A stretch of 63,112 bases of DNA, the filler included, from Dugesia japonica (taxonomy: Eukaryota): the NCBI GenBank assembly GCA_001938525.1. It is 5 parts of 5 records of this genome, joined end to end, with 100 filler letters (N's around TTAATTAATTAA, not from the genome) between each part and the next. Parts side by side here need not be neighbours in the genome. Positions count along the whole stretch, not along the records: positions 39,627 to 53,235 come from MQRL01610772.1; 4 more parts are not named here. One strand, written 5' to 3'. The notes below the pieces were generated by a model. It made no database searches and was not told the origin of the DNA. It saw nothing but the letters and a program-made list of their open reading frames with translations. A program made the position numbers and the translations under genes. Shown in pieces: positions 9,371 to 57,869 of the stretch; the stretch's first letter is position 1; each line of letters starts with the position of its first letter.

Positions 9371-9396
9371 TTAATAATGTTGGTAGAAAGAACTCA

Positions 9397-17979: not shown

Positions 17980-18112
17980 ACTGAGGGCTCATCTTTGTTA
18001 ATAAATCTTGTAGTTTGAACTGTCTTATCGATTTACTTTTCATTGTTTTCTTTATGTGGGTAGTCATTTGCCAATGTGAAAATTCTATTAACATTAACAT
18101 TAATTTCTTTAG

Positions 18113-18495
18113 TGCCTCGTATCCATCTCCCGAACAGTCTTCGTCGGTGCCACCGCATTATGCAACGACTTCTTATCGAACGGCATTTAAAGCGTAAAGT
18201 AGACCGAACAATGCTTAATCAATTATCGCAGAAGAACAGACTGATAAAAAAGTTAGATCTCATCGTAAAAAAGCAGAACGACCTTGCGACTCAAACAAAG
18301 GCCTTGGAAGCCGAGAATAAGCAATTATTGTTAAGAAAAATCGAGTTCTTAAAACAATATATTGCTGATCTGTCCCGTCGAATAGGTCACCCATCTGTAA
18401 CACAATGGGATGAGGAGGACGACATCGCCGCTTTCAACTTCGCGGTAACGGAACCAGATCAGTGGTTAGATCCTGGGGCGCTAGATCTGCTTTAA
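18113..18495 (+). CDS. Family X ORF3, basic coiled-coil (bZIP-like) exon with acidic tail
   Basis: Intact frame from the tttag|TG acceptor; conserved with 9078-9360; followed by AATAAA. Confidence 0.6.
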
Positions 18496-18754
18496 ATTTT
18501 TTTTTATAAAATAAAATGTCTGTGTTCGAATTTAGAATTTCTTATTTTCAACAGTAACAATAAAGGAAAATCATTGAACCCGAATATAAAGGTTTACTGG
18601 TGCGTACATTCCGTTAAGAGTAAGGTCAACCGCCATAAACTGAAAACCTACCCCAAGGGCGGTAGGGTAAATTTTTGATAGGGTTCCCCTGAGGGCTGTT
18701 TTTTCCCCAGCCATCGTGTTGCGACACTCAACTCAGGTGGGACCCCAACACTTT

Positions 18755-21489: not shown

Positions 21490-22920
21490 ATCTTCTTAAA
21501 AGCGATAGTATTTATGCATCAACCTAATAACTATAAATTTATTTAATAAAACAAGGTGAAAGAGAAACTAAAAATTAATTAAAATAATTTATTTTAATTC
21601 CTATTGGTTGAAATTTTTCCTAATTATTTCTTTAAAACCCTTTTCTTAAGAAACTTTCAAAGTTTTCACATTTCTCATCAATCACTTTCCATTTTCTCTT
21701 TGTACTGCACACGGTGTTTGTGAATTTTCTCAATTATTCAATTAAAACCTAAAAATTTGTCTTGGCTATTATTTCCTTTTTTCTACTTTGATAATCTTCT
21801 ACTTTGAATTCTCTATTAATAATCACTTCTGAAATAGTTTCTTCAGTTCTTTCTGAAACGTCTGACATGTATCATTTTCTCAGCTGATTTTCTTTTAAAA
21901 TACGATCTTAATCGAGCTCTTTCCAATCATCTTCTGCTTAGTTGGGTTTATCGTAAATTCTATTTCCAGTAAAATGTCTGCCAAATCTGTCTTCTTTCTC
22001 TTTTAAAATGTTGTATTAATTAAACCTCGAATTGTCCTGAACAATCACTCAATTTGTCCGTTTGCATTGTAATGATATGGACTTGAAAAGCAAAGTTTAA
22101 TATTCAGCTTCTGTACAAACTCTCTCATAACTTTGGATTCCAAGGCTTTCCCANNNNNNNNNNNNNNNNNNNNNNNNNNNNNNNNNNNNNNNNNCCGCTT
22201 CTCAAAAAAAGCTTTTCGTACTGTTTCTTAGTCTTGTCTACTCAACACTATACGAACCCGATATTTACTGATCTGGTCGATTATTTCAGGAATACATTTT
22301 TTCATCCACTTGTTTCCCGCATTAGCCCATATATTTCTGTGAACATGACTTCGGACAAATTGGTAAATTCTTAATTTAATTATATTCTTTTAATTATATT
22401 CATTGTCTTCTCTTTAATTGCTGTACTCATTACTTTGGTATTCAGACAAACTTCACAACTACGAAGTATTTCCTGTATTGGTCTCCATAGATTCTCTGCA
22501 ATATGTCTGTCTCTTATGTACCCTAACATCTTTTCAACTCCTGCATGACATAATAATGTCGTGTACTTTGTTATCCAGAAATTTTGTTTTCGTGATTAAG
22601 TTTTTTCTTCAGAAATGTTTAATTCTTCTTCTTTTTTCTTTTCTATTGTTTGCAGTACTTTTGTTTTAATTTTTTCTTTCTTAGCATCTTCATGTGACAT
22701 TTGACATTATACACATACCCTACATCTTGGTCTAGATAATATATATGCATTACCATGTAGAATTTCTTTTCCATATTCTAATACCATGTACAAACTACTA
22801 AGATAATTAATCCATTTCTGGAATTGTAATGTAATTGGTTTCTTCGTGGTCATCATGAAACATAAAGCTTTATGATCTGTCATAATAGCAAACTTTCAAC
22901 CGCACAAGTTATTAGATATT
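21490..22920 (-). mobile_element. Gypsy LTR retrotransposon 3' fragment (RNaseH-integrase-PPT-LTR), related to 27930-32045
   Basis: Minus strand encodes SSPYHYNANGQIE and a TEICGL-type integrase core; purine tract aagaaaaggg at ~21640 is followed by LTR-like aagaaataatta...ccaatag. Confidence 0.75.
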
Positions 22921-23820
22921 TTAAGATAACTAAGTGGCAGGAATTCAATCCAAATCTAATACAAAACTTAAGATAATCAAATTAATTAACTTTGATATAA
23001 GATCGTAGTAGGATTTTCTCCAAAATCTAATATCAAACTGATCAATACACGGTATATTTTTAGAAAGGTCTGAACACCCACTTGATTTTAAACTTATTTT
23101 AATACTTTTTATTAATTTGATTCCCAATTCGCGGCACCAAATTTGTTGAGTATTTCTACTCAACAAAGAGATGTTATGGTTNGTATTTGAAACTATTGTA
23201 AAAGATATAGGTAACTAATTTTACGGGTGTTTGATCTTAATTGATTTTCTTGTATGTCAATACGATATTTGATAAGCGATATTTTATTAAAGTATGAGTA
23301 TAGTTATATAGTGTATGAAATCCTATATAAATAATTAAATAACAACCTTTCAATAATATTTTATTTTTGANNNNNNNNNNNNNNNNNNNNNNNNNNNNNN
23401 NNNNNNNNNNNNNNNNNNNNTTTATTAATTTGATTCCCAATTCGCGGCACCAAATTTGTTGAGTATTTCTACTCAACAAAGAGATGTTATGGTTTGTATT
23501 TGAAACTATTGTAAAAGATATAGGTAACTAATTTTACGGGTGTTTGATCTTAATTGATTTTCTTGTATGTCAATACGATATTTGATAAGCGATATTTTAT
23601 TAAAGTATNAGTATAGTTATATAGTGTATGAAATCCTATATAAATAATTAAATAACAACCTTTCAATAATATTTTATTTTTGATGTATAAACAAATATCA
23701 AAGACGTATAATACAATCTTATAGGCAGAATTGAAATTAAATGAACTACTGCCGCTCTGAGAGATTGGAGTGTTCAATAATTTTGAAGTCTGTTTAACAC
23801 TAAAAAACGATCAGTATATA

Positions 23821-23920
23821 NNNNNNNNNNNNNNNNNNNNNNNNNNNNNNNNNNNNNNNNNNNNTTAATTAATTAANNNNNNNNNNNNNNNNNNNNNNNN
23901 NNNNNNNNNNNNNNNNNNNN
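23821..23920. other. Artificial contig-joining spacer
   Basis: N44-TTAATTAATTAA-N44. Confidence 0.97.
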
Positions 23921-27929: not shown

Positions 27930-28119
27930 TATAAGAAAATAATTATTATTTAATATTTTTAGCCAATAGAAATTGAGTTAATTCAGTACTAAGTTTCAAT
28001 CAGTTCTTTTCAATGATAATTATTTATAAATAGCAGAGTTGTAGTAGTAAAATAAATGATATCCCAAAACATTAGTTCTGGTTTGGAAAATGAATTACCA
28101 ATTGAAGATTTACCTAAAA
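27930..28119 (+). repeat. 5' LTR
   Basis: Direct repeat of 31856-32045 with scattered substitutions. Confidence 0.92.
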
Positions 28120-31100
28120 TGGTGGCAATGGTCAATACCGATTCCAATACAGAGAGGTTATTGCTGAAAGATTTTTGCAGAGGAGATGACATTGAAAAAT
28201 TCATCAAGCAGTGTGAATTGTATTTTGAAGAAGAGATTAGTCTCTTGTATGTTAGATGAAGATTTGTTGGAAGAATTTGCAAAAACTTTGAAAAAAGTTA
28301 AAGGATTTCAGGGTCATTAACGTATGGCATTTAAGAAAGAGAAAGATGCTATCAAAGATTTTCAAAATTTGATTAACTACAGGTGTGGAAATGAAAAGAT
28401 TCAAAATTATTTTAAAAATGTAAAAGATTTAGTTGAAAGATTATTTAAAAATAAAGATTTTACTTAAGAAAAAATGGTAGCAAAGATGCTAGTATATTGT
28501 TCAGATAAAAAAAAAGTTAAAAAAGAAGTAACTTTGAGGAAACGAGAGAATATAGAAGAAATTAAAGAAACAATAACTTTAGTAGATTGACTAGAGAAAA
28601 ACCGAGATCGAGTTGATGCAGTTAGAGTTACAAATCGAAATTATCAGAAACCTGTAAATCATACAGTGAATAGACATGTATAGCAAAGAAAAGAAAAATA
28701 AAATATCGAATGTTGGTCATGACATAAGATCGGTCATACTAAAGCGAGTTGTCCGACAAAAAAATTGGAAGTGTGCTAGAATTGTCATAAAACAGGACAT
28801 ATAAGCTGAGATTGTTCAAATAAAAAACCAACAAAATATTTTGGATGTGAAAAGATTGGTCATATTAGAAGGTTATGTCAAGAAGTAAGGTGTAAACGAT
28901 GTGGAAATGGTGGACATAGAGCAGAAGAGTGCTACACAAATTTGAAAGCGAAAAGAACAAGTGAGAAATTTATGACTGCAGTAAGATCAAGAAACCGATA
29001 TAATCGAGTACATGCGATTGCACATGAAGATGTCCGTATAAACGATGGATATGAGAAAGTATATGAAAGTGATTCTGAAAGGCATTAACCAAACGCCAGA
29101 GCTCCACCAGTAGAGTAGTTGGTTGGAGCCATCCATTTTTAAATGAAGTTAGTAACTATCATCAAGGGATCAAAAAGTGAGATGAGATAGGAAAATTTAT
29201 AGAAAAAGTATACAGGTTCTTACAGAGGGAAAATTTTGTGGATGGTAGAAAAGTAGAATGGTTTGGAACAGATGAAGCATATAAGAAAACAAATATTTCG
29301 TAACATAAATGGCAAGGCAGATCAAGTGCTACAGTATCAATTCAAGGAAATAAAGTCGAATGTCTATTAGATACATGGGCTAGAATTAACGTGATGAATT
29401 TGAGTTGTTTTAATAAATTACGAGAAGTAAATTTAAAAATGAGTAATGAAAAATTGCTTTGTGCACATTGTAGTACACTTGAAATTGTTGGGAAAGTTAG
29501 AACTGGAGTGATAATTGATGAAGTTTGCGAAGAGATTACTTTCTTAGTTGCTGAAAAAGTAACACCAGATATGAGAAATAGATATTCAAAAGATATTTGG
29601 ACAATTTAGTACACTTGAAATTGTTGGGAAAGTTAGAACTGGAGTGATAATTGATGAAGTTTGCGAAGAGATTACTTTCTTAGTTGCTGAAAAAGTAACA
29701 CCAGATATGAGAAATAGATATTCAAAAGATATTTGGACAATTTCGACAGACAATTGAATGCAGTAACGAAAGGACAAGCCTTTCCTAGGAATAATGTCGA
29801 TGAAATGCTGGACAAGTTAGATGGAGCCAAATATTTCAGTTCAATAGATTTAGGTAATGCATACTTTCAGGTAGAGCTCGAAAAAGAATTTCAAGAAAAA
29901 ACGGCGTTTTCAACAAAGCATGGACAATATTGTTTTAATAGAATGCCATTTGGCATAGCAAAGGCACCAGGGACATTTCAATAGATGATGACGAAAGTGG
30001 TAGGCTGAATCAATGGAGCCATGGTTTATCTTGTTGACATTTTGATATTTACGAACAATAAAGAACAACACTATGAAGTCATTGAAAGAGTATTGACGGA
30101 AATAATGAAGGCTCGACATAGAATTAATCCAGAGAAGTATCAGTTTCTTCAAAGCGACATCAAGTTTCTTGAACATATAATTAACAAAGATGGAGTCAGA
30201 ACTGATCCATCTAAAATAGAAGCACTGAGAACATTTGGCAAACCTAACTGTGTGAAGAAGTTTCTTAGGAAAATGTAATTATTATAGAAAGTTTATAGAA
30301 CACTACGCAAGAAAATCAAGGATCTTAGAGCAGTTGTGTAGCAAGCCAAGCAAAAAAAAATTAGAATGGACAGATGAAATAAACGATATTTTTGATGGTC
30401 TAAAAAAATTTCTAATGACTGCACCCATATTGTGTTTTTCAGACATAAACAGTATTGTCACAGAACGATAAGGAAGGAAGAGAAAGAGTTATTGCCTATG
30501 GATCACACTCAATGACGAGTCATGAAAAGGGATATTGCATCACACGAAAGGAGTTTATTGTTTCTACATGCACTTTAAACACTTTTTGTATGGTAGACGA
30601 TTTACTCTTAGAACAAATCATAAAGCGCTAACCTTCATGATGACAACGAATAACTTGCGTCACAATTTCAGACATGAATTAATTATCTGAGTAGTCTAGA
30701 CATGGTTTTGGAATAAAGAGAAGAAATTCAACATGGAATGCAGATATGTTATCTAGACCAAGATGTGAGGTATGTGTAAAATGTCAAATGTCACATGAAG
30801 ATGCAAAGAAAGGGAAGAATAAAACGAGAATAAACATGATAGAAACAGAAAAAGAAGAGCAATTATACATTTCTAAGGACACAGATTTAATCTAGAAAAT
30901 AAAAATTTCGGAGGACAAAATACTTAAGACAATAGAAGAAATACATAAATTAATATGTCATGCAGGAATTAAGAAGGTGTAAGAATACATGAGAAACAAA
31001 TAAATTGCGAAGAACTTGTGGTGCCGAATACAGAAAATAGTTCGTAGTTGTGAAATTTGTCAGAAGGTTAGTGACGACAGCAACTAAAGAGAAGACAAAG

Positions 31101-31855
31101 AAATTAGAAGCTACCAATCTGTTTGAAGTCATATTCATAGATATATGTGGGCCAATGCAAGAAGCAAGTGGACGAAAAAAATACATTCTTGGAATAATCG
31201 ACCATTTTAGTAAAGATCTGGTTCTTATACTATTGATTAGACAAGACGATAAAACAATACGAAAAGCTATTTTTGAAAAGTGGATATTAATATTTGGATG
31301 TCCAAGAGAAATAAAACTCGATTGTAAAAAAGCTTTTAAATCCAAAGTTATGAGATAGTTCGCTCTGAAGTTGGATATTAAACTTTGCTTTTTGAGTCCC
31401 TATCATCATAATGCAAACAAACAAATTGAATGACAGTTCAGGACGATTCGAGATTTGATAAATGCAACACTTCAGGAAAGAAAGACAACAGATTGGGCAG
31501 ATCTTTTATGGAAAGAAGATTAGCAGAGAAAAATGGTATGAGTCACTTCAGGAAAGAAAGACAACAGATTGGGCAGATCTTTTATGGAAAGAAGATTAGC
31601 AGAGAAAAATGGTATGAGTCAGACGTTTCAAGTCAAACTAAAGAAAACACTTTAAATGAGAATACAAATAGAGAATTTAAAGTGGGCGATTTTGTACTCA
31701 TTAAGATAGAAACAAGAAATAAAAGTCAAGACAAATTTGCTTGACCTTATCAAATAATTGAGAGAATTCACGAAAGACGGAATGCAGTACAAGGAGAAAA
31801 TGGACCGCCATTAGAATAAAATGTGGAAAAACTTAGAACATTTTTAAGAAGAGGA

Positions 31856-32045
31856 TATAAGAAAATAATTATTATTTAATATTTTTAGCCAATAGAAATT
31901 GAGTTAATTCAGTACTACGTTTCAATCAGTTCTTTTCAATGATAATTATTTTTAAATATCAGTGTTGTAGTAGTAAAATAAATGATGTCCCAAAATATTA
32001 GTTCTAATTTGGAAAATGAATTACCAATTGAAGATTTAACTAACA
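31856..32045 (+). repeat. 3' LTR
   Basis: Preceded by the polypurine tract; ends in ...TAACA. Confidence 0.92.
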
Positions 32046-39526: not shown

Positions 39527-39626
39527 NNNNNNNNNNNNNNNNNNNNNNNNNNNNNNNNNNNNNNNNNNNNTTAATTAATTAANNNNNNNNNNNNNNNNNN
39601 NNNNNNNNNNNNNNNNNNNNNNNNNN
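39527..39626. other. Artificial contig-joining spacer
   Basis: N44-TTAATTAATTAA-N44. Confidence 0.97.
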
Positions 39627-42600
39627 TGTTACTCTTTCTAGTTACACGATCCCCCTTTTCCCGGATCCAGCGGGACTACGCTGTATCCCGTCTTAGGTTC
39701 TAATTTCCTTTTTTATCTGGCTCTCGTTTTGAAGTTAACATCAAGAATTCATTTTAATTTATATTATGATCAGAAATATAAAATAAATGCTGTAAAAAAT
39801 TTAATCCATTAATGTCTTTCATTCGTCTAATTTGATGACTTCTTTTTGCTTTGTTTTGGTAACTTCCTATGCTGATTTAGGTGACTGAGTTAAGGTTCAA
39901 ACCTTCGTAATTAGCACGCTTTCCACGTTTGCGTATACCTTGTTGATATCCGCCATAGCGCGAAAAGTTTGAGATAACGCGAGATCACGTTCCTTCAACT
40001 TATTTATTTTCTCACGAAGCTGAGTGTTTTTATGTTGCAGCTCATAATTTCGGTCTTTAATCTCTTTTGGATCGAACACCATTTTGCTCGTATGTCTGCT
40101 ATTGAATTATCCGTCAATTTCCTGGCTTTATACACTGTAATTAGTAAGCATTTTAGTATCATAAGTTATAATTCGTTTCATTATAATTTGCAATAAAAAT
40201 ATCTTTAATATCTTTACTACTAATATATCATTTATTTATTTCAACAATGTGCTTTGCAATTCAATCATCCATTTAATACTAAAGTTGATGATAAAGGTTT
40301 TTACGTTAAAATTAGTTCTATAACATCACAATGATAAACACCTATGAAAGAAAAACAATTGTAAATCTAAAACTATATTGTTTTAACACAAACGATTATT
40401 TCACTGTTTCTTACAGATTCGAATCGTCCAGTGGCGCTAGTACCTGCAGTAGCACTGTCTGAACTTTACTAGCTAGCTTCTCGGAGAGTTTGGAGTACTC
40501 CTCAGCTTTAAGTTGCTTTGTCCTCATCGTTTGTATCACGTGTTGATCCTGTTTTTTTCTAATTCCGATGATCTTAACAGGGAGACCAGCTCCTCCCCGC
40601 GTTCATGTTGCCATCTGGTAATTTCCGTCACTTGTAATAAAAGTTGGCGTTTCTGCTGATCCACTTGTACCCGTAGTTCATTTATTCGCTGTATTTGTTT
40701 GGCGAATTATTGTCGCCGTCTGAGTATCTCTTCCCGCATCTCTTGGATTGTCTCGTCTTTTACTCTGAGTTGATCTCGAGTGATCCACGAAAGATCGTTA
40801 TCGGTTCATTCCGTATTCACGGAATTCCATGGTGGTGGCATGTCGTTTCACAACCTTGTGACAAATGTGCATCCAGCTAGGTCGAGGGATTACATGGCTT
40901 CCTGTTTAGTAATGCTTTAGTCATCTAGAGAAAATATACTAATACGACATGATCATGTTAGTAATAATATAACAATGTTGTATTCTAAATCACCNNNNNN
41001 NNNNNNNNNNNNNNNNNNNNNNNNNNNNNNNNNNNNNNNNNNNNTTCTAAATCACCATATAATAATATTTACTAAACTATCTTTTGGGTTTCACAGGCAT
41101 CGATCACCCGTCAATATGCATGGACGTGGACCATCTTGCTACTTGTGTTCACTCTTATACATTTCGTAGTAACTCAATCTTTCTCATAACTCATGCCAAG
41201 ACATCACCATTTTTGTTTCGATTAAACTTTCTAACTAATCACTTGAACAATATCTTGTTGATGATCNNNNNNNNNNNNNNNNNNNNNNNNNNNNNNNNNN
41301 NNNNNNNNNNNNNNNNNNNNNNNNNNNNNNNNNNNNNNNNNNNNNNNNNNNNNNNNNNNNNNNNNNNNAATTTAACAATATTAAAAATAAAATGCATTAA
41401 ATAATTAATCATAATAAACTAAAGTGCATTTATAATTAGGAATAAATTGATATTTTCACCACATTTACATCAATGTCATTTCAATATACATAAGTAACTC
41501 AAAACAGAAAGTAAAACTAACTCGAAGGAATTCAACTGGCACCACCAAATAAATATATTTCCTCACTTTCATATCTAAATTTATTCATTAAATGGTATTC
41601 ACTCTAATAACCACCAACAACTCTTTCGCATTAATACCTCGTTCATATTTATTAACAACTCTTTCATATGTATTAACAACTCTTTCATATGTATTAACAA
41701 CTCTTTCATTTACATTAACAACTCTTCTTTCATATATACATTAAATACTCGCATCTACTTCGATATCAACAATTCTTGTACTCAGTACTACTCATTTCAC
41801 AATCATCTGCCTCTCATATCGTTTCATGGCTATTAGTTCTCATCATCACTAACACTTGTAATTTCATGTCTTTCACCTCCTCACAACTTTTAACATCATC
41901 ATATAATATTCGTCTCACATTTATCATTGACAATTAAGATTCATCTCAAGTATTTATAAACATTGTTGATATTATTTCATATTATCACAAACATCTTTAA
42001 CACAACTCATGGTGAGTGATCTCGACAACATAGATCTCTGAGTTCCGATGATTATCATTGCTAGCTTTACTAGTCAATGACGACCACCGTATCAGTCTTC
42101 CGCTCATAATAAATCATGATATTAAAATAGCAATCAAATAAAATTACTTAGTAATATTTCCGTTTTAGCAATTTAAAACCTTGTATTTACTTAACACTTT
42201 TAACAATAAGTAGTGAAGCGAAAATAAAATGAGATTAAATGAGTTGTTTTTAAGTTTTTGTTGTTCTAATTTTTGAACTGCTTTTATAGTAATTTTTAGT
42301 AGGCACCCACTTCAAATATTTGCAGAATCGTGTGGTGCTCACTCGCAGATTTTACATAAATGACTAAATTTAGTAATGATTTTATTTTCATATTTTATTA
42401 CCATATTTCTCTATATCGTGTCTCACACATGAATCCCGGTTCTCAACGGCCTCATAGATTTCTATTATATTCATTCTCTGTACATAGAACGGTGCATACA
42501 ATTCTCATTTTCTGCATTGCTCACCCGACACAGATAAACTCTAATTTCAATACAATATGCGCTGCTCACCCGTCACATAGTAAATCGCATTTTAAATGTC

Positions 42601-44071
42601 ATCAAAATTTTCTAATGCTGTACTAGTTTGAATTTGCACTGCATCACTGACATTTGAAAATGTCAAATAATAATTTTTATCATTATAAATAATAAATTTG
42701 GATACTTTGTTTTCCATTTATAAATAAGGATATTTGCATGTATAAATATAAATAATTCCATATCATTCTTATAATTTAATTTAAAATTCTTTTCTCTTCC
42801 TTTACATTTAATTTTTATTATTAAATTCTATTTCCTTCATCAAATTTAATTATATTTATCAAATAATAATAAAATTAATAATATTTATTGCTTAAAATAA
42901 TAATTTTGNAAATTCTATTTTACAGATTTAAATTACTGAATTTTCCATCAATACATATAAATTATTTACTACAAATATTAAGTCTAATTTAATATTTTAT
43001 TCTTTTTTACAATATAAAACTTTCGTTTTTAAATTCCGATTTCTTTTCTATAAAGAATAATATTTCACTAATAATAATAAAATTAATAATTACAATATAA
43101 TAATATTTTACNNNNNNNNNNNNNNNNNNNNNNNNNNNNNNNNNNNNNNNNNNNNNNNNNNTATTTAATACTTTATTTTACGAATAAGGTCTTTTCCATT
43201 ATAATATAATGATAACACTAATTTATTACACATATGTTTTCTAACTTTCGTTGAATTTAATACATCTTTCGTTAACAATTATTTAGTTTTAAATCTATTT
43301 TCTATAATAATCTTTTCATTTTATTATAATAATTATTTCTTTATAATTCTACTTATATCACAATCATATAAATTATAAATAATGATATATGTTCACCATT
43401 TCTTTCGATCTTCAAGTTAATCACTTATTATTTATTCGAGTCTTTTTATTTCTGACTTTTATCGTTTNNNNNNNNNNNNNNNNNNNNNNNNNNNNNNNNN
43501 CTTGAGCATTAATATTTATTTATTTTTCTTTGATAAATTATCTTAGCAGTCTATTCATCTGTGATCTGATTTTCTTTTATTAGTTTAATTTAACAATTGG
43601 TTCGTCTTTAGTTCCTTTGATTCTTCTATTATCATTTTAACCCGACACTTTATTCACTTTTAATTCATTTGATTCTTCTAACATTAATCATTTCTTATTT
43701 TTGCCGAATTATCATTTAATACTATCATTTTATTTAATTATTTATTGTTTTCAATAAGTATTTCTGGGAGCATCATTGTTCTAATTATAATTTTATTCTT
43801 TAAAATGAGCATTTGATTTATTCGTAATTACTATATCTCTTCTCATCTTCTAATTTCGGTTTCAATTTGCAAGTTCGTTTAACAATATTTCTTTTTATTA
43901 TTTACTGATTAATTCATCAATTATATATCAAATGTTTTATTAGTATTTATTTCTTTTATATATTTCCTTCCATTTCGGATTTTAATAATTTTCTAACACC
44001 CTCAGTTTTTTATTTCTATTTCTCTTAGTTAACTCAATATTATTCTCTTACCGAGCTGTTTCAGCCCGACA
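39627..44071 (-). mobile_element. ~4.4-kb TG...CA element (family Y), probable giant LTR, with decayed spliced coiled-coil exons
   Basis: Minus strand starts TGTCGGGCTGAAACAGCTC at 44071 and ends ...GAGTAACA exactly at the contig edge; a second 5' end is at 56816; exons 40924-40415 and 40134-39897 have canonical splice signals. Confidence 0.6.
41630..41725. repeat. 21-bp tandem repeat ATTAACAACTCTTTCATATGT
   Basis: About 4-5 copies by direct reading. Confidence 0.85.
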
Positions 44072-44917
44072 ATTTCTACTTTGTTATAGTATTTTTTATA
44101 AATCAAAACATGTATAAAACAGTAAAGTTTATCTAATTCAATCCCATATTATTCGATGTTCCAGTGATTGTTCTGCATGAGATTTTGCAACTGAAATTAT
44201 AATATTAAAATAGATTATCAAAAAAACAAAGATTACTTAGAGTCTTTGGATCTCTTTCCATTTTGCATTCATCTTGTTGTCTTAATGCAATTGCTAAAGT
44301 TTTTAGTTTAATATTCATATGAACTTGATTTATCATTCGGGATTTGAATAAATTAAATCATAATTGTAGTCTTTGGTCAATTTTTCTTTTTCATTCTCAT
44401 AAAACTCATTAGCGACTGTTAAAAAATCAAGTTTATAAACTTTTACCAGATTATCCATTAGAAAACTAACATTTTCAAAACAATCTGGATTAAATTTTAG
44501 TTTATTTATCTCATATATATCTTCTGAGAATCACAAGACTATCAAGAAATTGAATCTGAATAAGAGCTTTGTAATGTTTCTTCTAATTTATNTCGATAAA
44601 GTATAATTTCATTATTTGATATTTCCTCCATTGCATTGATAAATGGTTCGAAATTGAATAAATTTGACAGATTATCAGCTACATTAACTATACATTTGTT
44701 GAGAAATATTTATATTTCAACGATAAATAACTTTTCGTCTCTGAAATAATTTTTAGAATAATTGTTCTTCCATGAATTTGTCATCGTCTTCAATAACAAC
44801 ATCTTGGTTACATAGTTATATTTCTTTCAACAATTCCGTATGTTTTTCTGACAAGTTTACGTCATCCATTTTTGAAAATTTAACAATTCCCACAAACAGT
44901 TAATTTAAACAAGATAC

Positions 44918-45365
44918 ATGTCTAAACTGGACATTATAGCCTTATATAGTACCGGACAACCACACTTTGTAGGAAAATCAGGGTGGTTGCAAACAATTGG
45001 TATATTTTCTTTACCTATTCTTGGACGTATTGGTGCAATTGGAAGGAAAACAGCACAGGATGAAATAAATAATAAAGCAAAAATTTTACCATCACTGAAA
45101 AAAATCCAATGAATGAATTAAAAAATCTTTACGTATTCAGTAGTCAAAACCAAAGGATGGATAAAATCTTACAAGAAGTGGAACAAAACGTAAGAAATCT
45201 ATCATGATGGATATAAACTAACAAATGAAAAGATGTAAAACCATATTTGACTAATGATTTACCAAAAAATTGAATTGTTTATTTTCGACAGTCCATCACT
45301 GGATGGATTATTTGAAGATGTGTTTCCAATGAATACTATTTCTAAAAGTTTAAATGATGTTGAGA
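44918..45365 (+). mobile_element. Possible Polinton remnant (core-like basic protein and capsid-like N-terminus)
   Basis: HFVGKSGWLQTIGIFSLPILGRIGAIGRKTAQD...SLKK and ELFIFDSPSLDGLFEDVFPMN resemble adjacent Polinton genes; resemblance is from memory only. Confidence 0.4.
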
Positions 45366-46644
45366 GTAAGTAGACGTGAGCGCATGACCACAGGTCTTCC
45401 CTGTATTTTATAGTATTATTATGGTCTTATGGTATTGATGTGAAGTGGTATGGTGTATGTTTATGTGTGGAAAGCTCACATGCACATTTATGTTTAATTT
45501 ATATGGCGATGTGATGTGTTTGTAAAGAAAACTGTAAAAATACGAAATTTGACTCAAATGTTTTATGTGTGTGTTCACTTTCTTTGAGGTTTTGATGATG
45601 GATTTAGGAAGACCGCCAAGTTGAGCTATACATTGTCTAAAAGACTTATAGTGTAAAATGTGCCTGAGAAAGTTGCGAGCGCTGTGACAATGAATTATCG
45701 CAAACTTGATTTAAAATCGCACTGGTGATGTGAGTAGTTGACGGATATGGATGAATTTAATGTTGATATTAAGAGGAGGTATCGACATAGGTGATGAAAT
45801 AAGTTTTGGGATGGTTTGATAAATTTTTGATTATTTTTCGATGAATAGACTTTTGGTTTGTATGTAGTATAGGTAAGCGAAAAAAACTTTNNNNNNNNNN
45901 NNNNNNNNNNNNNNNNNNNNNNNNNNNNNNNNNNNNNNNNNNNNNNNNNNNNNNNNNNNNNNNNNNNNNNNNNNNNNNNNNNNNNNNNNNNNNNNNNNNN
46001 NNNNNNNNNNNNCTAATAGATGAATGTTTGAGCAGTCCTTATACTTTTGTTCCGGCAGTTTTGAGATTTTGTCTTCGTTCGGGTAGTTTTTATATGTATG
46101 TGTGTTGCATGGTTGATACAATTACGTTGCAAAAGATAGTTATATGTGTAATTTAATGCTTTCGGTGGTCTAAAATCACCAGCCACGTGATTTTAGCGAG
46201 CTAGAATCGAAGTTATTAAAATTTTATTTGTTGTATTAACTTTTTTATAATACTTTTTTGAATGTTTCCACTAGCTAAAAATAACAGTGATTTTTTGTAA
46301 ATATAAATAAACGTTTGACACCTCCGATTTAATCTCTCATAAAAGCTAAAAAAATAACGAACCTATTAATTACCCTAAACAAGGAGCTACACATATTTAT
46401 ACGCAGCATTAAATATTCAAATCTGCATTAATTTAAACCGGAAGCACTCAAATGATTCAGTTGATCCGCACGAATTATTTGGTGGTCGCGACACAGATCG
46501 TTTTGATCCGGTTGTGGGCACTCAGCTCTAGTTTTCACTGGATAATTCCGGAAGTTACTTTAAATTAAAGTTTATTAAAGAATTACCAATTATCAACAAA
46601 TTTTATTAGTCGGATTAAAAATTATTATTTTAGTGATCCGTGAA

Positions 46645-46667
46645 GCCCCAAAGGTTGGCGACCACTG
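46645..46667. repeat. hAT-type terminal inverted repeat end (AAGGTTGGCGACCACTG)
   Basis: Reverse complement CAGTGGTCGCCAACC is a typical hAT/Charlie terminus; the partner end was not found. Confidence 0.55.
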
Positions 46668-47209
46668 GTCTAAGAGATATGAGATAATAAGAGTTTGGAT
46701 AATTATAATTAGCTGTCAGGATAAGCGTACTGTAATAATGAATCAGGAAATCAGTTGACAATCTAATGGTGAAAGCTCCAAACATTTAAAGACAGATGAC
46801 TTCAGAAGAGAATTTGAAGTACTTACATGACTCGCACTAGCACATAACAACACGAGATCGTGGTGATGGACTGGACAACCTCAGATGACAATTTTTCATT
46901 GATGCACAAGCCGCTTAACTTCCAAGATTGGATGTACCTAACCTAGTATTAGCTTATAGATATTTGATATCTAGGAAAGCAATACGGTAGAGTAATTAAT
47001 AGGCATTATCATTCCATTTATAAAAGATACTAACGTTGACATGAATATAATGTATTAGTTTTGTGAATTCGAATCACTATATTATATTATATCCATTTTT
47101 ATAATATAATAAAGTTTTGATAAAATATGAAAATAGTTACATAATATAAAATATATAGAAAATTGAACTAAATTATTTATTTAGAAGACTAATTGAATTC
47201 CCAATATTA

Positions 47210-47467
47210 CTATTTCTCTAAATTTAATAATAAGACGTTAAATAAAATCATAAATTATACTAATTTGTTTTCCATCTTTCCATAAATTTAATTTGGCAGT
47301 AACACCATCTCTCTTTATGGCTTCTACTTGAAATTCCGGTTTTAATGCTTGTCTAACAGCCTTTGCACATATCGAACTATATTTAATATAACTAAATAAT
47401 GTAATATAACTTATTTATATATTAAAATTTTGTACTTTATACCAGCTAATCGCCATAAATTTGACAT
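47210..47467 (-). CDS. ATP5F1E: Mitochondrial ATP synthase F1 subunit epsilon (56 aa)
   Basis: Exons 47467-47436, 47391-47261 and 47217-47210 with 44- and 43-nt GT-AG introns give [56 protein letters not shown], matching the WRxAGxxYIxYSxICAKAVRxALK family signature. Confidence 0.93.
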
Positions 47468-47761
47468 TTCAAAAGAAAACCCAAAATTAATGAATTTAAA
47501 TAAATAACATATATTAAAACAATATTGAAAGAATTTTCATTATCCAATTTATAATTAATTTTTTACTTAATAGAAATTATTAGTGCACAAATTAATTATA
47601 AATAGAAGAGATAAATAAAATTCAAATCAATACTGTGATTGTTATTTAAGAGAGGTTTGTTGAGTTAATAAACCTTGATTAGCCAAAATAAATCATTACA
47701 ACATTCGATCAAGATATCTTTATATTCGAATTTTAGACTTTTCTCTTCTCAAGAATGAACT

Positions 47762-47794
47762 TTTCCTGAAGAAGACAAAAGTCACAAATTTGAA
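47762..47794 (+). ncRNA. Degenerate hammerhead motif
   Basis: TTTC-CTGAAGA-A-GAC-AAAA-GTC-ACAA-ATTT-GAAA: helices I and II intact, GAAA core lost. Confidence 0.4.
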
Positions 47795-49589
47795 ATACTA
47801 AAAAATATTAAGAAAACAATATTTTAATCGAAGATTTTAATTCAATGAAATCTCAAACCGAATCAAGCAAAAATTGTAATCAGGGGTGTCACTAGAGGAT
47901 ACGAATATGTGGGCTACACTGAGTAATAGCAAAATACAAAAATAAAATTTTTTAGTTTCAAATTCAAAACAGACAGTGCTCTGTCTTGTCGCAGTAGTCG
48001 GTTTTCAAAACCGTCCATAGTTAAATTATTTAAATTAAATGTATAAGCAGAACAGCTACAGCCCACAATGTACAAATATTTACCGCGCACAGTGTCTGGT
48101 GCTTAACTGATTAATATTCCAGCTGCTCAGAAGGGAAACTTTTAAATAAAATAAAAATAAAGTTAGATGTTAAAAAACAATAACTGAACTTTGTCTATTT
48201 TCTTAATTTATATTTTACTAGTAGTAGTGGATTCGTTCGACTTGCTATTTTTCTTATGTCCTTATTAACTTCTTGAATTATTTAACAAAGATTACTACGG
48301 CGATTATACATTATGTATGTTCTAGTACAGGAACAGTGAAACACTCTAATGAGGCCCATGGTTAAAGTCTATAGAAATGGATAACATCAAGAGTTCACCA
48401 TACTTGGTGAAACCTATCTCAATGACGCTAATGATTGTAATTGTAAAAATAAATTTTAAAATTGAATAAAATGCAAAATTTTAAATAAATCATTGTTAAA
48501 TGAGTATTTTAAACTATTTTAAGATACGAAATACTGAAATTCTAAAGGAATCACGAAATAATCAGTGAATAAAATGTATATTTGAAAAATTACGAATATT
48601 TGCTTTTGATCGGAGTATTGCCTTGCCTGTAATCACATTAANTAATTAAGCTAAGTGCAACAATAAAAGCGCAAATAAATGTAATCTATTTAAGTAGTGC
48701 ATATTGTCTAAATACCCAACTGTTAAATGCGATATTTTGTAGCTTTCGGCGTGAATATTAAGACGTTGGTGCAAAACACTGTGCATAATCATGACAATCT
48801 ATTGAATGACCGTTGACTGGCATTTGGTATGATCAGTGCTTTATTCACTCTAAAAACTAATGACGTTTATAAGAAGGACAGCACAGAATGTCATGTGAAT
48901 TCATTAGACCTGAGATAGATGGAATTACGCTTTTTCCGTTTAATGTATCTACAATTGATTCATTAATCACATTCTGGGCAAAAAATGCAAAATTTATGCA
49001 AACGAAAAAGTAGTAGCTCATTTGTGCGCAGTGACTATTAGTAATCGTTCTGTTAATAGCAGTATCGATGAGTGAGATGTATAGGTTTTGAAATTCCTTT
49101 TAATTTTTGTTTCAGTAACCATAATTTCATTGTTAGATGATCAATCGGCAAGTCTTCCTTCATTTAGCCCCTTGTGACTTGTATGATTATAACTATCAAT
49201 TATTGTCGGTAATACGTTTATGTACACAGTGCGTTTACAATGCATTTCTCAATGTTCAATTAAACCTGTCAACATATGCTGCTGTGTACTGTGAAAATAC
49301 AGGATAATGGTTAATTTTTAGATGATTGACTTTATTATTATTGACTGATATTATTGTATTTAGAGTTGTAAANNNNNNNNNNNNNNNNNNNNNGTAAATT
49401 ATGTGGATTTTAACATTATCTTGATTGCAACTTCCATTTCATTAGACGACTTTGATTTTATAGGTACCGCTCTTGCGAATCTACTAAATACATCGATAAA
49501 TGTTCAAATATACTTGTAACCTTTATTAATTCTTGAAATCATCAATCCTATATGTTTTATACTAATATTATTAACGAAGAATTTCTATT

Positions 49590-50356
49590 ATTTTTTAACT
49601 GGAATGCCTTTTGGTATAACAGCATCACCAGGAGCACTTCAAGAATTAACGGCAAAAGTCTTAAGGAAGTTGGAAAGAATGGTGGTTTACATTGATGATA
49701 TATTGATATTTTCAGATTATTTGGAACGGTACTATGAAATATTGGACAAAACTTTGAAAGGGATTCAAGTATCCGGATAGAATATAAATCCGGAAAATGT
49801 TATTTATTACGAACAAAAGAATTTGTTTAAGATATGTCAAAGAAAGGAACTAACTACACAAAAATTGTAGCAATAAAAAAACTTCAAAAGACCTAAATGT
49901 GAAAAGAAGCATTTGGAATTACTATAGGCAATTTTTAAAAATTAACTCAAAAAAATCTAGAAGTCTGAAAGAATTAGGTTAGAGTAATAGTAAGAGAGTA
50001 ATATAAAAAGGCTCTTAATGAGATAGTAAAGGCATATACATTGAGTTTTCCTACATTAAAATGTTTACACTGAATAAAAATAGGAGTTTTAACGCGATAA
50101 AAGTGATTTTATCACAACTAGATGACAACAGACTAGAAAGAGTCGTCGCATATGGATTACATCCAAACTGAGTCCATGAAAAGAGGTACTCCATGAGAAA
50201 ATATTTACTGAATATTTACTACATTTGTAATCATTTTAAGCATTAGTTAAATTGTTAAATATTCTCGGTGATTACAAGGTAAAAGTATTTATGATAATAC
50301 GAAGTCAATTACCTCATAATTTCAAACTTGGATGGATATTCTTTGCAGCCTAAATA
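49590..50356 (+). mobile_element. Gypsy RT-RNaseH fragment (resumes briefly after 51621)
   Basis: MPFGITASPGALQELTAKVL...VVYIDDILIFS; ERVVAYG. Confidence 0.85.
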
Positions 50357-51621
50357 CAGCGATGGATCTAGGGAATTTTCATTGGGGGCGATATGAAAAT
50401 AATTACGTTATTTATTATGTAATCGACCGGAAATTAAATTTTTAGTTTAAAAAAAGTAAAACTAATGATTTTTTTACATTTACAAAAATAAAATTTTAAT
50501 TAATTTTCACGGAAATCCAGTAGAAAAGTCCATTGTTTAAATATTTTTTTTAAATAAAATTTAATATTTTCAAAATGAAGAAATTTAACTAAGGCTTAGG
50601 CCAAAATGTTTTTTTAAATTTTATTAGGGTTAAAAATTACAAAAAATTTAATTTTCTTAGACCCCAATTTTCGATTTTATCTTCTTCTGGAGTTGTGATT
50701 AAATAAATTGAATAAATCAATCACAACTCTAGAAGAAGATTAACTCGAATATTTGGCGAAGTAAGTTAAATGTTTGAAAGTTTTAACCTTAATAAAATTT
50801 TAAAAAACATATTTTGATCTAAGCTTTAGTTTATTTTCTAAATTTTGAAAATATTTAATTTTATGATTCAGAGATCAATGGTTAAAAATTTTAAACAAGT
50901 GAATAATTACCAAATAAGTAACTGTCACAATAAACAAAATTTTTTTACAAATAATTCAAATTTTCATGGGAATCCGGGTGAACAGTCCAGGTTTTTCAAA
51001 AATATTTTTTATGCTCAGATTTTAAATACTTTTATACAAATCTGTTAAGAATTTGATGGGGGTCATTTTTGGTTTTTTCAATATTTTACAGACTTTTCGA
51101 AAAATAAAAAGTATTTCAAATTTTATCATTAACCCATCTATTCAATAGAGAATTTTATGCTGAGTTAGAATAACACGAGTAAAAATCTCCAATACGTATT
51201 TTAGAGGATATTAAATGAAAATACCAATAAAAAACTAACAAGTACAATTTCTATATAAGGTTAATTTTTATTATAAAATTTATTTAATTCATCATTTTTA
51301 GTATTTAATTGTTTTTACAGTAGATAGATAGATGATCCTAAATTACTAAACCAACATTTCAAACTAAATTTCTAAACCACTTTGTAATATGGGGATGTGG
51401 TTTAGTGCGCCACAATTTATCTACTTTATTTTTAATCTACAATTATTTTTATCGTATTCATTTCAACTTTTTGATACAAAACTGTTTTTAATTATTCTTC
51501 TTTACATTTTCATTCTACTATACTAATATTCACGTGGATAGTCGCTCCTTATCATTATATAACCTTTTCGAAAACTGGTTATTGGGACTGATCGCCCCCC
51601 CTCACCGTGGATTCGTCGTTG
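50357..51621. mobile_element. Non-autonomous hAT-like DNA element inserted in the Gypsy fragment
   Basis: Imperfect TIRs CAGCGATGGATC / (rc) CAACGACGAATC with subterminal GGGGGCGAT; degraded 8-bp TSD CCTAAATA / ACTGAATA. Confidence 0.65.
50560..50850. repeat. ~280-bp imperfect palindrome (foldback)
   Basis: Arms 50679-50700 and 50719-50740 are near-perfect reverse complements, and the symmetry extends outward. Confidence 0.8.
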
Positions 51622-53235
51622 ACTGAATATGCAATTGGAATTTACTCAAGGATTAAATGTGTTGTCAATAATGAATTGTGCCATGTACCATTGTTGTGTA
51701 TTTATACTTATTATACATTTGTGAATGTGTATATATACAAAATTATGTGTATTATAATATTGTATAACATGTCAATAATAATATTGAAAAAGAAATTAAA
51801 AATCAGAATTTAAAAATATGAATATACTTGGAAACCGCCAAAAATAATTGCTTAGAAACTAGAACAAGAAAATATTACAGAATAAAAAGTTAAGGATTAT
51901 AAATAAATTTTAAAATTTTTTGAGAAACAAAATAATAAATATTGTCGAATTAAAAAATAAGAATTTGTTTGAAAATATAAACATGAAAATATTGCAGAAT
52001 TGTAAACAAAAAATCCAATTTTTAAAAAAACCTACCAAATCAAATCTAAACTGAAGAATCAAACCAAATTCTTAAGCCAAGTCAAGTCGGAAAAGGAGTA
52101 ATTTGTTTGAATTGGTAAAATTGGTTTGTTTACATTTTGTTCTTTTATTTTTTTTGAAAATTGTAAAATTTCTTAGTTAACAAAGCAATTAAAATTCTTT
52201 ATTGTAGAACATGTATAACTTCGATGAAACTTAAGTATATATAACACAACACACATCCCAATTGTCACCACATATTTTTAATAGACTCTTGGTGCCCAAA
52301 ATTTTCTTATAAAGCAAAATTAATTCTTTGCCAATAAAATTTAATATAAATTCAAAAATTCGTTTGCAGTTTTTCATAAACTTGAAGACTCAATTGATAA
52401 ATTTGACTGACAAGAGATTCTAAAAGTCAATTGACCCAAAAAAAATACTAGGATATTTGGAAACACTTTTAAGATAAAGCAAAGATCACCTACTAAAATC
52501 AGTAGTCAGACAATTGATCAAATATATGTAATGANNNNNNNNNNNNNNNNNNNNNNNNNNNNNNNNNNNNNNNNTCCACAAATAGACACAAATCAATAAT
52601 ATTTTCATATAAATTATAATATTGTTACCAATCAAATAGCAGAAACCGAAAGAATTTGAAATAGTATCACAATATATTCTATTTAATAACAAATAAACAA
52701 TGGAAATCATTACAACAAACAACGGGACTAATAAAACGTGATTGTGTACATATTAAGAAAACAAAAAATCGTTAAATACGCAATATTTTTGTGAAATTTT
52801 TACTAATCATTTTTTTTATCTCCTTCACACTTGATATTCAATTCTTCTGATGATTTAAGAGCAACTAAATTTAAAACAAATTTAAACAAAATTGAATTTT
52901 AATAAATTATTAATAATATTAATCACATTTCTCTCCATTTAATAAGTCTATAAAATAGTGTATTTTTAATATTCTTCAAATAGAAATTTAAATATCAATC
53001 AATATAAATTTTAAAATGCTCTTGACCAAACGAATTTAATTTNNNNNNNNNNNNNNNNNNNNNNNNNAACGCCATATTCCGTTGCCAATTTTCTTTGCGA
53101 TGCGCTTTTCTTTAAGAGTTTTGAAAGGATTTCTATTTTCTGTGTTTCATTCAATTTTCCCATAATTCACTTTTTAAAATTTTCACTAACTCTAATTTAT
53201 TTAAACGAAATTATTTTTTAGCAGTGGTCACTTTT

Positions 53236-53335
53236 NNNNNNNNNNNNNNNNNNNNNNNNNNNNNNNNNNNNNNNNNNNNTTAATTAATTAANNNNNNNNN
53301 NNNNNNNNNNNNNNNNNNNNNNNNNNNNNNNNNNN
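53236..53335. other. Artificial contig-joining spacer
   Basis: N44-TTAATTAATTAA-N44. Confidence 0.97.
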
Positions 53336-54187
53336 AAAATTTATTTATTATAAAATTTATTACAGATTTTATTTTGGAGTTAATGTTATTTACAAAAAAA
53401 TTAATATCTACTGTCGCGGAAAAATATCGATGATATATTGCGGTTATCAATGAATGAAGCTCTGGTCTAGTTTATGAATAAAATAAGTAAATAAATTTGT
53501 AGGTAACAATGGTCTAAAAAATAAACTATTAATCTTATAAAGTAATAAAGGTTTATTTAATCTTTGTTATACATAAATAATTTTACTTTCTGTACAAATT
53601 TTCTGAAGAAATTTGAATTTAAATGTATTTTATTAAACGATTTAATTACTGTCAATTTAAAAAACGATGCGTAAAAAATAATTTATCAAACACGTGAAAA
53701 TATTTTTGTATTTTTGATGTTGGTTAGCACAATACTGCTTCAGTATTACTTGATGAATACCCATAATTGATTGAGGTATGCAAATTAAACCCATTTTTAT
53801 CCATAAACGAAGTGTTTATTNNNNNNNNNNNNNNNNNNNNNNNNNNNNNNNNNNNNNNNNNNNNNNNNNNNNNNNNNNNNNNNNNNNNNNNNNNNNNNNN
53901 NNNNNNNNNNNNNNNNNNNNNNNNNNNNNNNNNNNNNNNNNNNNNNNNNNNNNNNNNNNNNNNNNNNNNNNNNNNNNNNNNNNNNNNNNNNNNNNNNNNN
54001 NNGAATTATTTTCACTTTTTTCTTTATAAATATAAATTTTACTAGATATTCGGATATTTTTTTTAATAATTTTAAAATAATAATACGCGTGGAAGATATT
54101 TTCTAACATTGTTAAAATTAGATTCAATTAAACATTGAATTAAACATAAGAATTTATTTTAATCTAAATTTAACTAAATTTATTTAG

Positions 54188-55848
54188 ATGAAATTAGAAA
54201 TGGATCTTTCAAAAAGCTATTTCATCCAGATCGATTGGTTACTGGTCCTGAAGATGCCGCAAGTAATTTTGCTAGGGGATTCTTTACCGTTGGAAAGCTC
54301 TTATTAGGAACAATTAATAATGAAACTAGGAGGCTTCTTGAAAATAGTGATTGTATTCAAGGTATATTTTTGTTCAGATCTTTAGGTGGAGGAACTGGAG
54401 CTGGATTAACCTCTGCAATTTTTGACGGTTTGGCTGAATATCCAAAAATTCCTAAAATTGAAGTTCCAATATACCCTTCTCCGACTCTTTCAACAGCAAT
54501 GGTTGAACCTTATAATTGCCTTTTGGGGGAGCATTTTTGTATGGAGGATGTTGATGTTGGACTTCTATTAGATAATGAAGCTTTATATGATATATGTTCC
54601 AAGTATTTAACAATAAATTATCCGACATTCAGTACAATAAACCGTCTTGTTGCTCAGCTTTGTAGTTCAATAACTGCATCTGTCAGATTTGAAAGTGTCA
54701 TGAATTGTGATATTACCGTACTTCAAACTAATTTAGTTCCTTATCCAAGAATACATTTTCCACTTGCTAATTTTGCTCCAATTTTATCTCCTGAAAAGGC
54801 TCAGCATGAAGAATTGTCTGTAATGGAATTAACACGTTATGTTTTTGAAAGAGAAAACCAAATGATGAAAGTTGATCATTCTTTTGGACGTTTTATGTCA
54901 TGTAGTTTACTTTATAGGGGTAATATTAGTCCTTATCATGTTTATCTAGCTTTGACTGAAATTAAAAGAGATAAAAGTATAGAATTTGTTGATTGGTGTC
55001 CTACAGGATTCAAAGTTGGGATAAATGTGTGCCCCCCTACAACAATACCAGCTAGTCAAATAGCACAAACAACTAAAAATGTAACGATGTTAACAAACAC
55101 TTCAGCTATTGGTCAAGCATGGCAAAGATTAACTCACAAATTCTATTTGCTTTATTCTAAAAGATCTTTTGTACATTGGTTTGTTGGTGAAGGTATGGAA
55201 GAATGTGAATTTACAGAATCACTTTATAACATAAGTGCTTTAGTAAAAGACTACGAAGAATCTGCAATGGATGCTAAATACGAAGAAGGAGAAGGGGTAG
55301 TTGATACATCTGCACCAAGTGCTCCAGCGACTAATGGTAGTCTTAATCATGACAATGCTGGTGCTCAAGGACAGGAATATGTTGAAGTAACATCTAGTCA
55401 AAGAGGTAGTTTTGAACAAAAAGATGTTCTATCTAAAAGTGGAATAACTAACGATAATGAAGAGAAGGAAGAAATACAAGAATCTAGAAGAGTGGATTCC
55501 GAAGTAGAAAGTGATAGTAAAAATCCTGTAAGTGAAACAAGAGCTGAAGAAATAGAAACTGAAAAAGTCGAAAATGAAGATATTGGTAAAAGTGAAAATG
55601 ATAATGTAAATGAAGAAAATGAAGGCGAAAATGTAGAAGTAGATAACAACGAAGACAATCAAAATGATATTGATCCAGAAGTTGAAGATGAAAATGAAGA
55701 ATTAGAAACTGAGGAAATCAATGATCTTGGAGGAGCTATTGATGAAACAAGTAATAGTAGTAATAAGATATTTTATCAAAGTGGCAGTGATTCATCTGAA
55801 AAGTCTAACAAATTACCAATAAGATTTTATCAATATAATAAACAATAA
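54188..55848 (+). CDS. Divergent alpha-tubulin with long acidic C-terminal extension (last exon; N-terminal ~75 aa not visible)
   Basis: Exon starts at the phase-1 acceptor in D76 (DEIRNGSFKKLFHPD); motifs GGGTGAG, DNEALYDIC, QTNLVPYPRIHFPL, FVDWCPTGFKVGIN, FVHWFVGEGMEE are alpha-type. Confidence 0.93.
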
Positions 55849-56815: not shown

Positions 56816-57345
56816 TGTTGGGCTGAAACAGCTCAGTTAAAAAATAATTTTGAGTAAACTGAGGAAATTGGAGATAAAGAACTCTGAATGCATTAGAAAA
56901 TGATTAAAATTAGAAATTAAAAGAAATAAATTCTATTAAATCATTAATGAATTAACTGATAATAAAATAAATGAATGTATTAAAAAAATCAACCTATCGG
57001 AAATGAAATTAGAAAATAAAGAAGCGAGTAAGATTAAAAGAATCAAAATGAAAAGCTATAATAAAGCATTAATAATAATAAATCTTTAATAAGAAATAAA
57101 ATAAAACAACGATTTCTATAAATCGATAAACTAAGGATCATGAGAATCAGAGACTTGAATAGAAAATCATGATTAGATTAAAAGAAACAGACAGACATTT
57201 ATCATCGAAATAAATTAAATGCTCGGAAAATACTACGAAAAGTTCAGATTTAATTATTGAGAAAAATTAAATAAACTTAGAAACAATTGGTCATTAAAAT
57301 AAATTATAATAAAAGCGGAAATTCATAACTGAAAGTGCTCAAGAA
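56816..57345 (+). mobile_element. Truncated 5' end of family Y element
   Basis: TGTTGGGCTGAAACAGCTC...; collinear with the reverse complement of 43500-44071. Confidence 0.7.
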
Positions 57346-57869
57346 GATGATAAATCGATTAAAGAAAGCGAATAATAAAGTCAGAAATACAAAGAGTAAT
57401 TTCGGTTGGTTCAAGAATTTGCAATTCTTTAACATTATCGGAACTGTCGAAATTCAAAGTTCCGTCTGAACCAGAACAATTTTCAGATGAAGTGTTTTGC
57501 CTATTCATCATATTATTAATAATACTAGTTAAGAATTGATTTCTGTGAATGAATTTTAACCTTTTATTATCTGTCAACGAAATTGAAGATAATTGGATCA
57601 ACACCACAAGCTGCTTCCAATAACTTCTTTCCTTTCTGTGGATTTTTTACATATTCTAAATAATTGATTGTGCGACGAAAAAATTTGTCTGCATATACGA
57701 TTGAAGTTGTTCAGTTTTAGTGCGGTTGTTGTCTTTAATCGCATTTTCAAAATGATGACATGAAGATGACCAATTCAGCCAAACTGCTGATACAGTTTTA
57801 AAGGAGCTGGCCACCCATAGGACGTTAAATATATATACATATATATTTCTACACCGATGGCGGTTGCAA

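Follow-up and report, generated by a model that had tools for sequence, protein, structure and literature searches.

A small, partly covarying hairpin predicted at the starts of two otherwise dissimilar long LTR-like repeat families in Dugesia japonica

The window analysed here comprises 63,112 nucleotides of Dugesia japonica DNA (assembly GCA_001938525.1), made of parts of five records joined end to end, of which positions 39,627 to 53,235 come from MQRL01610772.1. The spacers N44-TTAATTAATTAA-N44 at 10706-10805, 23821-23920, 39527-39626 and 53236-53335 mark the assembly joins. GC content is 27%, assembly gaps are numerous, and short duplications across gaps (318-642/693-1018 and 23108-23370/23421-23683) are likely artefacts. 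A decayed ordinary Gypsy at 27930-32043 (plus strand) retains ~190-bp LTRs that are 95% identical, together with zinc knuckle, reverse transcriptase and integrase fragments, and an inverted relative of it lies at 21596-22892. A divergent alpha-tubulin of the flatworm-type class, with a long acidic tail, occupies 54178-55848 (plus); one relative of it is 96% identical, and the named sequences most like it, from trematodes and monogeneans, share 65-67% identity. Taken with the base composition, these matches point to a flatworm, likely a planarian. Asn/Lys-rich, coiled-coil-like ORFs with internal repeats at 5671-6606 and 9310-10757 (plus) gave only weak coiled-coil matches in Pfam, below the cut-off, and a degenerate 51-nt tandem array is found at 3346-4135.

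Our subject is a pair of repeat families, X and Y, represented by five copies that form the comparison set throughout: X1, X2 and X3, and Y1 and Y2. On the minus strand, X1 (1563-1580) and X2 (2562-2579) start with TGTTG-GGGTG-AAA-CACCC and are identical over the first 20 nt. Y1 (44051-44071, minus) and Y2 (56816-56836, plus) start with TGTYG-GGCTG-AAA-CAGCT, and the X3 terminus (13995-14014, plus) is degenerate. All five termini had been reported in a preliminary description of this DNA, at 1580, 2579 and 44071 on the minus strand and at 13995 and 56816 on the plus strand, and all are present. X1 starts ~1,000 nt inside X2 (1580-2579, minus), which makes a nested insertion likely; each of the two runs off the window start or into it.

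The starts are sharply defined. In a self-BLAST the alignments break off at precisely 1580/2579 and 44071/56816, and public contigs matched to Y1 stop at 44071-44073 before running into other sequence, with unlike loose ends past the terminus in 6 of 17 contigs. Summed depth across these 17 contigs of one run is 370-410 at 44042-44071, 59 at 44072-74 and 0 further out; such depth is not copy number, but the step at 44071 is nonetheless sharp. In one run, the summed depth also doubles across the last 30 nt of Y1 (194 to 411), as would be expected if family Y is best conserved at its terminus, and among the matches listed at least one contig variant falls within the Y stem (44070, one contig). 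The flank at 44088-44240 is a very abundant short repeat unlike Y1 (summed contig depth up to ~105,000), and Y1 appears to have inserted in one copy of it; the other Y1 flank, on the empty-site side, has no match within the window.

No resemblance between X and Y extends past the first ~24 nt. The six X-Y pairs, scored over nt 25-570, reach 24-47, within the range of shuffles (means 27-39), whereas the four within-family pairs score 91-276, far above shuffles, which bears out the earlier view of the families as otherwise dissimilar. Within families, too, the start is the best-kept part: X1 and X2 agree at 20/20 of the first 20 nt vs 372/495 past nt 24, and Y1 and Y2 at 18/20 vs 147/197 (~75%), the part of Y2 homologous to Y1 (56816-57378, plus) being 61% identical over 602 columns. 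The motif is also rare in the window. Full 5/5 pairing occurs in 4 of the 21 TGTYG-N5-AAA-N5 sites (100 dinucleotide shuffles averaged 0.12, and none had more than 1), and a GC-rich stem of at least 5 bp, with at least three G-C pairs and starting at nt 3-8, occurs at 4 of the 200 TGTYG sites, namely X1, X2, Y1 and Y2, all of them termini defined independently through repeat boundaries. Since these four sites are two pairs of related copies, they represent only two independent families, and what the counts establish is that these repeats are marked by the motif, not that selection acts on it. A TGTTGGG at 16119 (minus), within the X3 unit, was set aside as an element terminus because it forms the 7-nt loop of a perfect 9-bp inverted repeat (16104-16128), found by eye. 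Beyond the window, a motif scan of metagenome contigs gave 119 loci (GC 0.33-0.71) with no match to the window past the motif, the two variable stem positions being paired in 55 and unpaired in 64, and we regard these as chance. A scan of viral contigs gave 13 loci (8 paired, 5 unpaired), and we took these as chance as well, including two with a 40-nt match that includes the motif (E ~6e-4). Raw RNA reads on target, at 0, 2 and 0 in three runs, were too few to use.

Both ends and a target duplication are known for one copy of the five, X3. It spans 13995-18750 (plus; 4,756 bp including 486 N), has 9-bp perfect inverted termini, and is flanked by the 4-bp target-site duplication CTTT at 13991-13994 and 18751-18754. 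The far-end sequence CCCCAACA occurs once within the next 31 kb, where CTTT follows 7 of 573 ACA; the 4-mer frequency is 0.007. Nested inserts may have enlarged the unit. A promoter-like block at 14469-14669 (plus) holds three CCAAT motifs, an invariant GTTGGGGT box and a degenerate TATA; its counterparts are at 950-1150 in X1 (minus; three CCAAT, a GT box and TATATAAG) and at 1971-2170 in X2 (minus; CCAAT boxes, a GT box and TATATAAG). When X1-X3 are aligned, the three CCAAT, the GTTGGGGT box and the TATA lie on the same strand, ~600-670 nt from the hairpin end, and the copies diverge soon past the TATA. An AATAAA with a GT-rich stretch is found at 18510, ~240 nt before the far end of X3, which terminates in ...CCCAACA and does so without the distal hairpin arm. 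The far end is predicted to form a branched hairpin of its own (18681-18745, plus; z -3.75) that closes 5 nt from the terminus and, in this one copy, takes up the inner half of the inverted repeat.

This layout corresponds to U3-R-U5 with TGTTRNR...YNYAACA ends, as set out in the accessible text of PMC3601003, and so places the hairpin end at the start of U3 in family X; the opposite assignment, to the end of U5, is rejected for X by the direction of the promoter and by both X3 ends. The same orientation is likely in Y, by analogy with X and from a single TATA-like site in one copy (42288, 1,784 nt into Y1). We followed Y1 for 4.4 kb to the contig end (possible extent 39627-44071, minus). Just before that end, at 39646-39662 (minus), a purine-rich tract precedes TGTAAC; the site is either the 3' LTR start of another element or the GC-rich far end of Y1, and no second copy of this LTR-like start was found.

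Within the window, we could link no primer-binding site (PBS), polypurine tract (PPT) or pol gene to X or Y (the domain scan covered 69 of the 150 ORFs that reach 65 aa, and the loose contig ends are unlike flanks). Among the scanned ORFs, reverse transcriptase and integrase domains fall only in other elements, at 22.4, 29.7-31.4 and 49.5 kb. By their nature, solo LTRs lack a PBS, gag-pol and a PPT. Given that these domains lie only elsewhere and that no PBS or PPT adjoins the unit, a solo long LTR is the best reading of X3. The preliminary label of giant-LTR-like holds in that X is long and LTR-like, with the inverted termini and target duplication of X3 and the conserved promoter behind it. 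We consider it likely that X and Y are repeat families whose 5' ends are the U3 starts of long Gypsy-type LTRs. X3 also contains a small ORF, coiled-coil-like by inspection (18112-18495, plus), with a second copy at 9077-9358 (plus). Between the two copies, differences at the three codon positions number 21/15/52, and of the 94 codons compared 41 are synonymous vs 23 non-synonymous, indicating purifying selection. Sequence searches found no relatives beyond the second window copy. A second small ORF upstream is similar in both copies yet broken. It would be unusual for an LTR-like unit to hold a gene between its promoter and its poly(A) signal.

X and Y share an 18-nt start that is predicted to fold into a small hairpin with an AAA loop. 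In X the predicted stem has 5 bp (nt 6-18), and in Y it has 7-8 bp (nt 3-21; 8 bp in Y1) with G-U at pairs 6/18 and 3/21. The earlier description gave Y a 5-bp AAA-loop stem 5 nt from the terminus; the stem and loop are there, but its outer pair is G-T rather than Watson-Crick and the predicted stem starts 2-3 nt from the end. Across the five copies, pair 8/16 is G-C in three and C-G in two, which is the swap between X and Y noted before. Pair 4/20 is C-G in Y1, T-A in Y2 and unpaired in all three X, a second compensatory change, within Y. Pair 6/18 is G-C in three copies and G-T in both Y; pair 9/15 is T-A in four and T-G in X3; pair 10/14 is G-C in four and broken in X3; and pair 5/19 is paired in Y only, failing in all three X. 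In total, 28 of 35 cells of the alignment are paired, with two compensatory changes (8/16 between families, 4/20 within Y) and two changes that keep a wobble. The loop is 3 nt in 4 of 5 copies, and the loop and closing pairs are alike in X and Y. A canonical GNRA tetraloop was ruled out by inspection, as T9 and C14 do not pair. The hairpin is kept in 4 of the 5 copies; in X3 the loop has gained 2 nt, no terminal stem is predicted (z 0.4, stem pair probability ~0.01) and the stem is lost, possibly by decay after insertion.

The statistical support for covariation is modest, resting on two events with p of ~0.03 and ~0.02, both post hoc: the tests were chosen after the data had been seen, and the rows are related to each other. 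All three X-Y differences at nt 6-18 keep pairing, and under an exact null that places the observed number of substitutions at random and requires a double change, the probability is 0.031-0.038. Within nt 3-21, Y1 and Y2 differ at two positions, which belong to a single pair (0.018-0.019 under the same null). If only surviving pairing is required, the values are 0.07-0.19. The covariation score of 0.343 was matched by 12 of 500 shuffles and was at most 0.114 when slid, and the count of two double-changed pairs, among five related rows, was matched by 65 of 500 shuffles. The fold is better than that of shuffles in Y (z -2.3 in Y1, -2.25 in Y2) and typical of its composition in X (z -0.7 and -1.1). 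Both wobbles, 6/18 G-T in Y and 9/15 T-G in X3, pair only on the sense strand; for 6/18, the probability of pairing on the antisense strand is 0 in Y1 and in Y2. No comparable 5' hairpin was found at the ordinary Gypsy LTR (27930/31856) or at the LTR-like start at 39646, and the window holds no Rfam match at the gathering score (e.g., hammerhead, histone stem-loop). A third LTR-like end, at 23457-23478 (minus) with a duplicate at 23144-23165 across a gap, consists of a perfect palindrome centred on a GAAA tetraloop. With its flanks it forms an 11-bp predicted stem, directly before a PBS-like sequence that starts with TGG and that we take to be tRNA-His-like. It is a predicted U5-end hairpin in a register unlike that of X and Y.

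In both families, then, a conserved, partly covarying inverted repeat overlaps the 5' att site. The preliminary description went further and proposed selection on a terminal DNA or RNA structure, or a palindromic protein site, for integration or plus-strand priming. The compensatory changes are real, but selection on structure is not established by two events in five copies, with the stem lost in X3, composition-typical in X1 and X2, and missing from two other LTR starts in the window. Of the two forms proposed, the wobbles favour a single-stranded sense structure and disfavour a palindromic duplex site. Any role in integration or plus-strand priming is our inference, as X and Y could not be connected to a PPT, PBS or pol. 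The longer Y stem, the second covarying pair, the strand-specific wobbles, the solo-LTR ends of X3 and the X promoter are new here.

The inverted ends of LTRs are textbook knowledge, and LTR ends are usually seen as constrained by a short integrase site that is read as duplex DNA. A doubtful, though by no means negligible, alternative is that related integrases conserve an ordinary att site and that template switching (a quasi-palindrome) or chance produced the symmetry, the fold having no function. TGTYGGG fits the general consensus TGTTRNR given in PMC3601003, a single template switch can create or repair a stem according to the accessible part of PMC8794818, only two events are at hand, each with p 0.02-0.04 post hoc, and the stem is lost in X3 and lacking at the two other LTR starts. 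This account sits uneasily with the 6/18 G-T, which persists in both Y copies although they are 75% identical further in, when templated repair would be expected to remove it. Nor does it readily explain why X and Y have their loop and closing pairs in common, or why conservation reaches ~nt 20, past the 9-bp inverted repeat found at both X3 ends, when the far end of X3 lacks the distal arm. It is improbable, in our view, that the motif is instead a double-stranded site for a dimeric protein (a host factor, integrase or Gag) with two half-sites 3 bp apart and no fold. GGGTG/CACCC presumably resembles GT/CACCC boxes, and all three X carry GTTGGGGT at the terminus and again ~21 nt upstream of the TATA; the near-constant loop length also suits such a site. 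However, the central G-C/C-G swap alters the two half-sites together, a change that one would not expect a fixed host factor to tolerate, and the Y half-sites are asymmetric exactly as G-U wobble permits.

A further alternative removes X and Y from the LTR elements altogether: they could be small non-autonomous elements, moved by a Ginger-like transposase resembling a Gypsy integrase, with their own promoter, short ORFs and poly(A) signal, and the hairpin could be a subterminal transposase or end-processing signal. The X3 unit carries a promoter, a selected ORF and AATAAA between its termini, which would make for an unusually long R in an LTR, the sequence beside X and Y yielded no internal retroelement domain, PBS or PPT, and Ginger elements also start with TGTNR and make 4-bp duplications (PMC2836005). 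We nevertheless hold this to be very improbable indeed, since the inverted termini of X3 measure 9 bp vs ~40-270 bp in Ginger and the one known target is CTTT rather than the CCGG/CCGT of Ginger1 or the RTATAY of Ginger2, as far as the accessible text of PMC2836005 describes them, while the U3 promoter, the AATAAA with its GT-rich stretch and the YNYAACA end fit the LTR model of PMC3601003.

Our preferred explanation, which we hold tentatively and at slightly less than even confidence, is a sense-strand hairpin, kept by selection, that lies just inside the integrase site and acts in reverse transcription. More broadly, the shared hairpin likely marks a signal used in copying the elements, with five copies too few to be sure. 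In this scheme, nt 1-9 would be the short inverted repeat of the integrase (att) site, the ordinary cause of likeness between LTR ends, and nt 10-21 would fold back on that repeat's inner half within a single-stranded sense molecule, which could be genomic RNA just 3' of the PPT or displaced plus-strand strong-stop DNA. The hairpin might mark or protect the PPT/U3 junction, or alternatively stop the two LTR ends, which are complementary, from annealing to each other while strands are transferred; template switching may supply the double changes and selection would keep them. The predicted far-end fold of X3, with its use of the inner half of the inverted repeat, suggests from one copy a more elaborate version, which is a long shot: long planarian LTRs would be bracketed by paired hairpins, with the covarying AAA-loop stem where U3 begins and, closing 5 nt short of the U5 end, a strong stem, each hiding the inner half of att on the sense strand while leaving the outermost bases free. 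Such a switch would stop multi-kb strong-stop DNA from forming a panhandle and present the ends to reverse transcriptase and integrase, and the same LTR would encode a small selected protein.

Known systems offer partial parallels. In PMC3601003, as far as its text is accessible, LTR ends follow the 7-nt consensus TGTTRNR...YNYAACA, with att sites reaching 8-15 bp. X and Y resemble these in the TGTYGGG start and, in X3, in the ...CCCAACA end, the 9-bp complementarity, the 4-bp duplication and the layout of TATA and of AATAAA with a GT-rich stretch; they differ in a shared sequence that reaches nt 18 across families, a local stem and a constant AAA loop, no such hairpin being described in that part of the source. 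The same text reports PPT-containing 3' stem-loops in Sirevirus and HIV, in which U3 pairs with sequence upstream of the PPT, and Sirevirus U3 regions carry arrays of GC-rich palindromes (PMC4728375). Inverted repeats near the 5' end of U3 and a structure proposed at the PPT/U3 junction are common ground, whereas the X/Y stem is 5-8 bp, lies wholly inside U3 and overlaps the att site. In Ty3, U3 carries an RNA-level signal, the 3' part of a bipartite PBS, and plus-strand strong-stop DNA is displaced in single-stranded form more than once (PMC5371799). A hairpin of the X/Y type could fold on such released DNA, although the accessible portion of PMC5371799 describes no terminal hairpin. Template-switch mutations in RNA stems (PMC8794818) provide a route to instant compensatory changes in short stems and explain the origin of the swap, but not the retention of the wobble and the loop.

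A further parallel by description is with Burro/GYPSM1, giant Gypsy-like elements of planarians, in which, according to the accessible text of PMC6431247, a giant polyprotein (Gag, BIR, MATH, BCL2, env-like and RT) lies between LTRs and the full length is over 30 kb. The planarian host, TG...CA ends, multi-kb terminal units and small accessory ORFs are shared, but the likeness is one of general description, and neither X nor Y is linked to a Burro polyprotein domain, none of which was found in the 69 window ORFs scanned. The accessible parts of PMC11410931 and PMC8532177 hold no LTR-end detail. In the open-licence literature we found no small stem wholly inside U3 that is common to unalignable families; supplements or Repbase may contain Burro LTR ends.

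PMC3601003, in its accessible part, called a search for structures at the PPT/U3 junction warranted. If conserved att sites and template switching account for X and Y, these families would be a compact case of template switching mimicking covariation in repeats. If, on the other hand, the preferred reading of a selected sense-strand hairpin is true, a covarying structure lying over att would impose a further constraint, a structural one, on the PPT/U3 junction, and the shared start would provide a short probe with which to collect long planarian LTR families that are otherwise unalignable.
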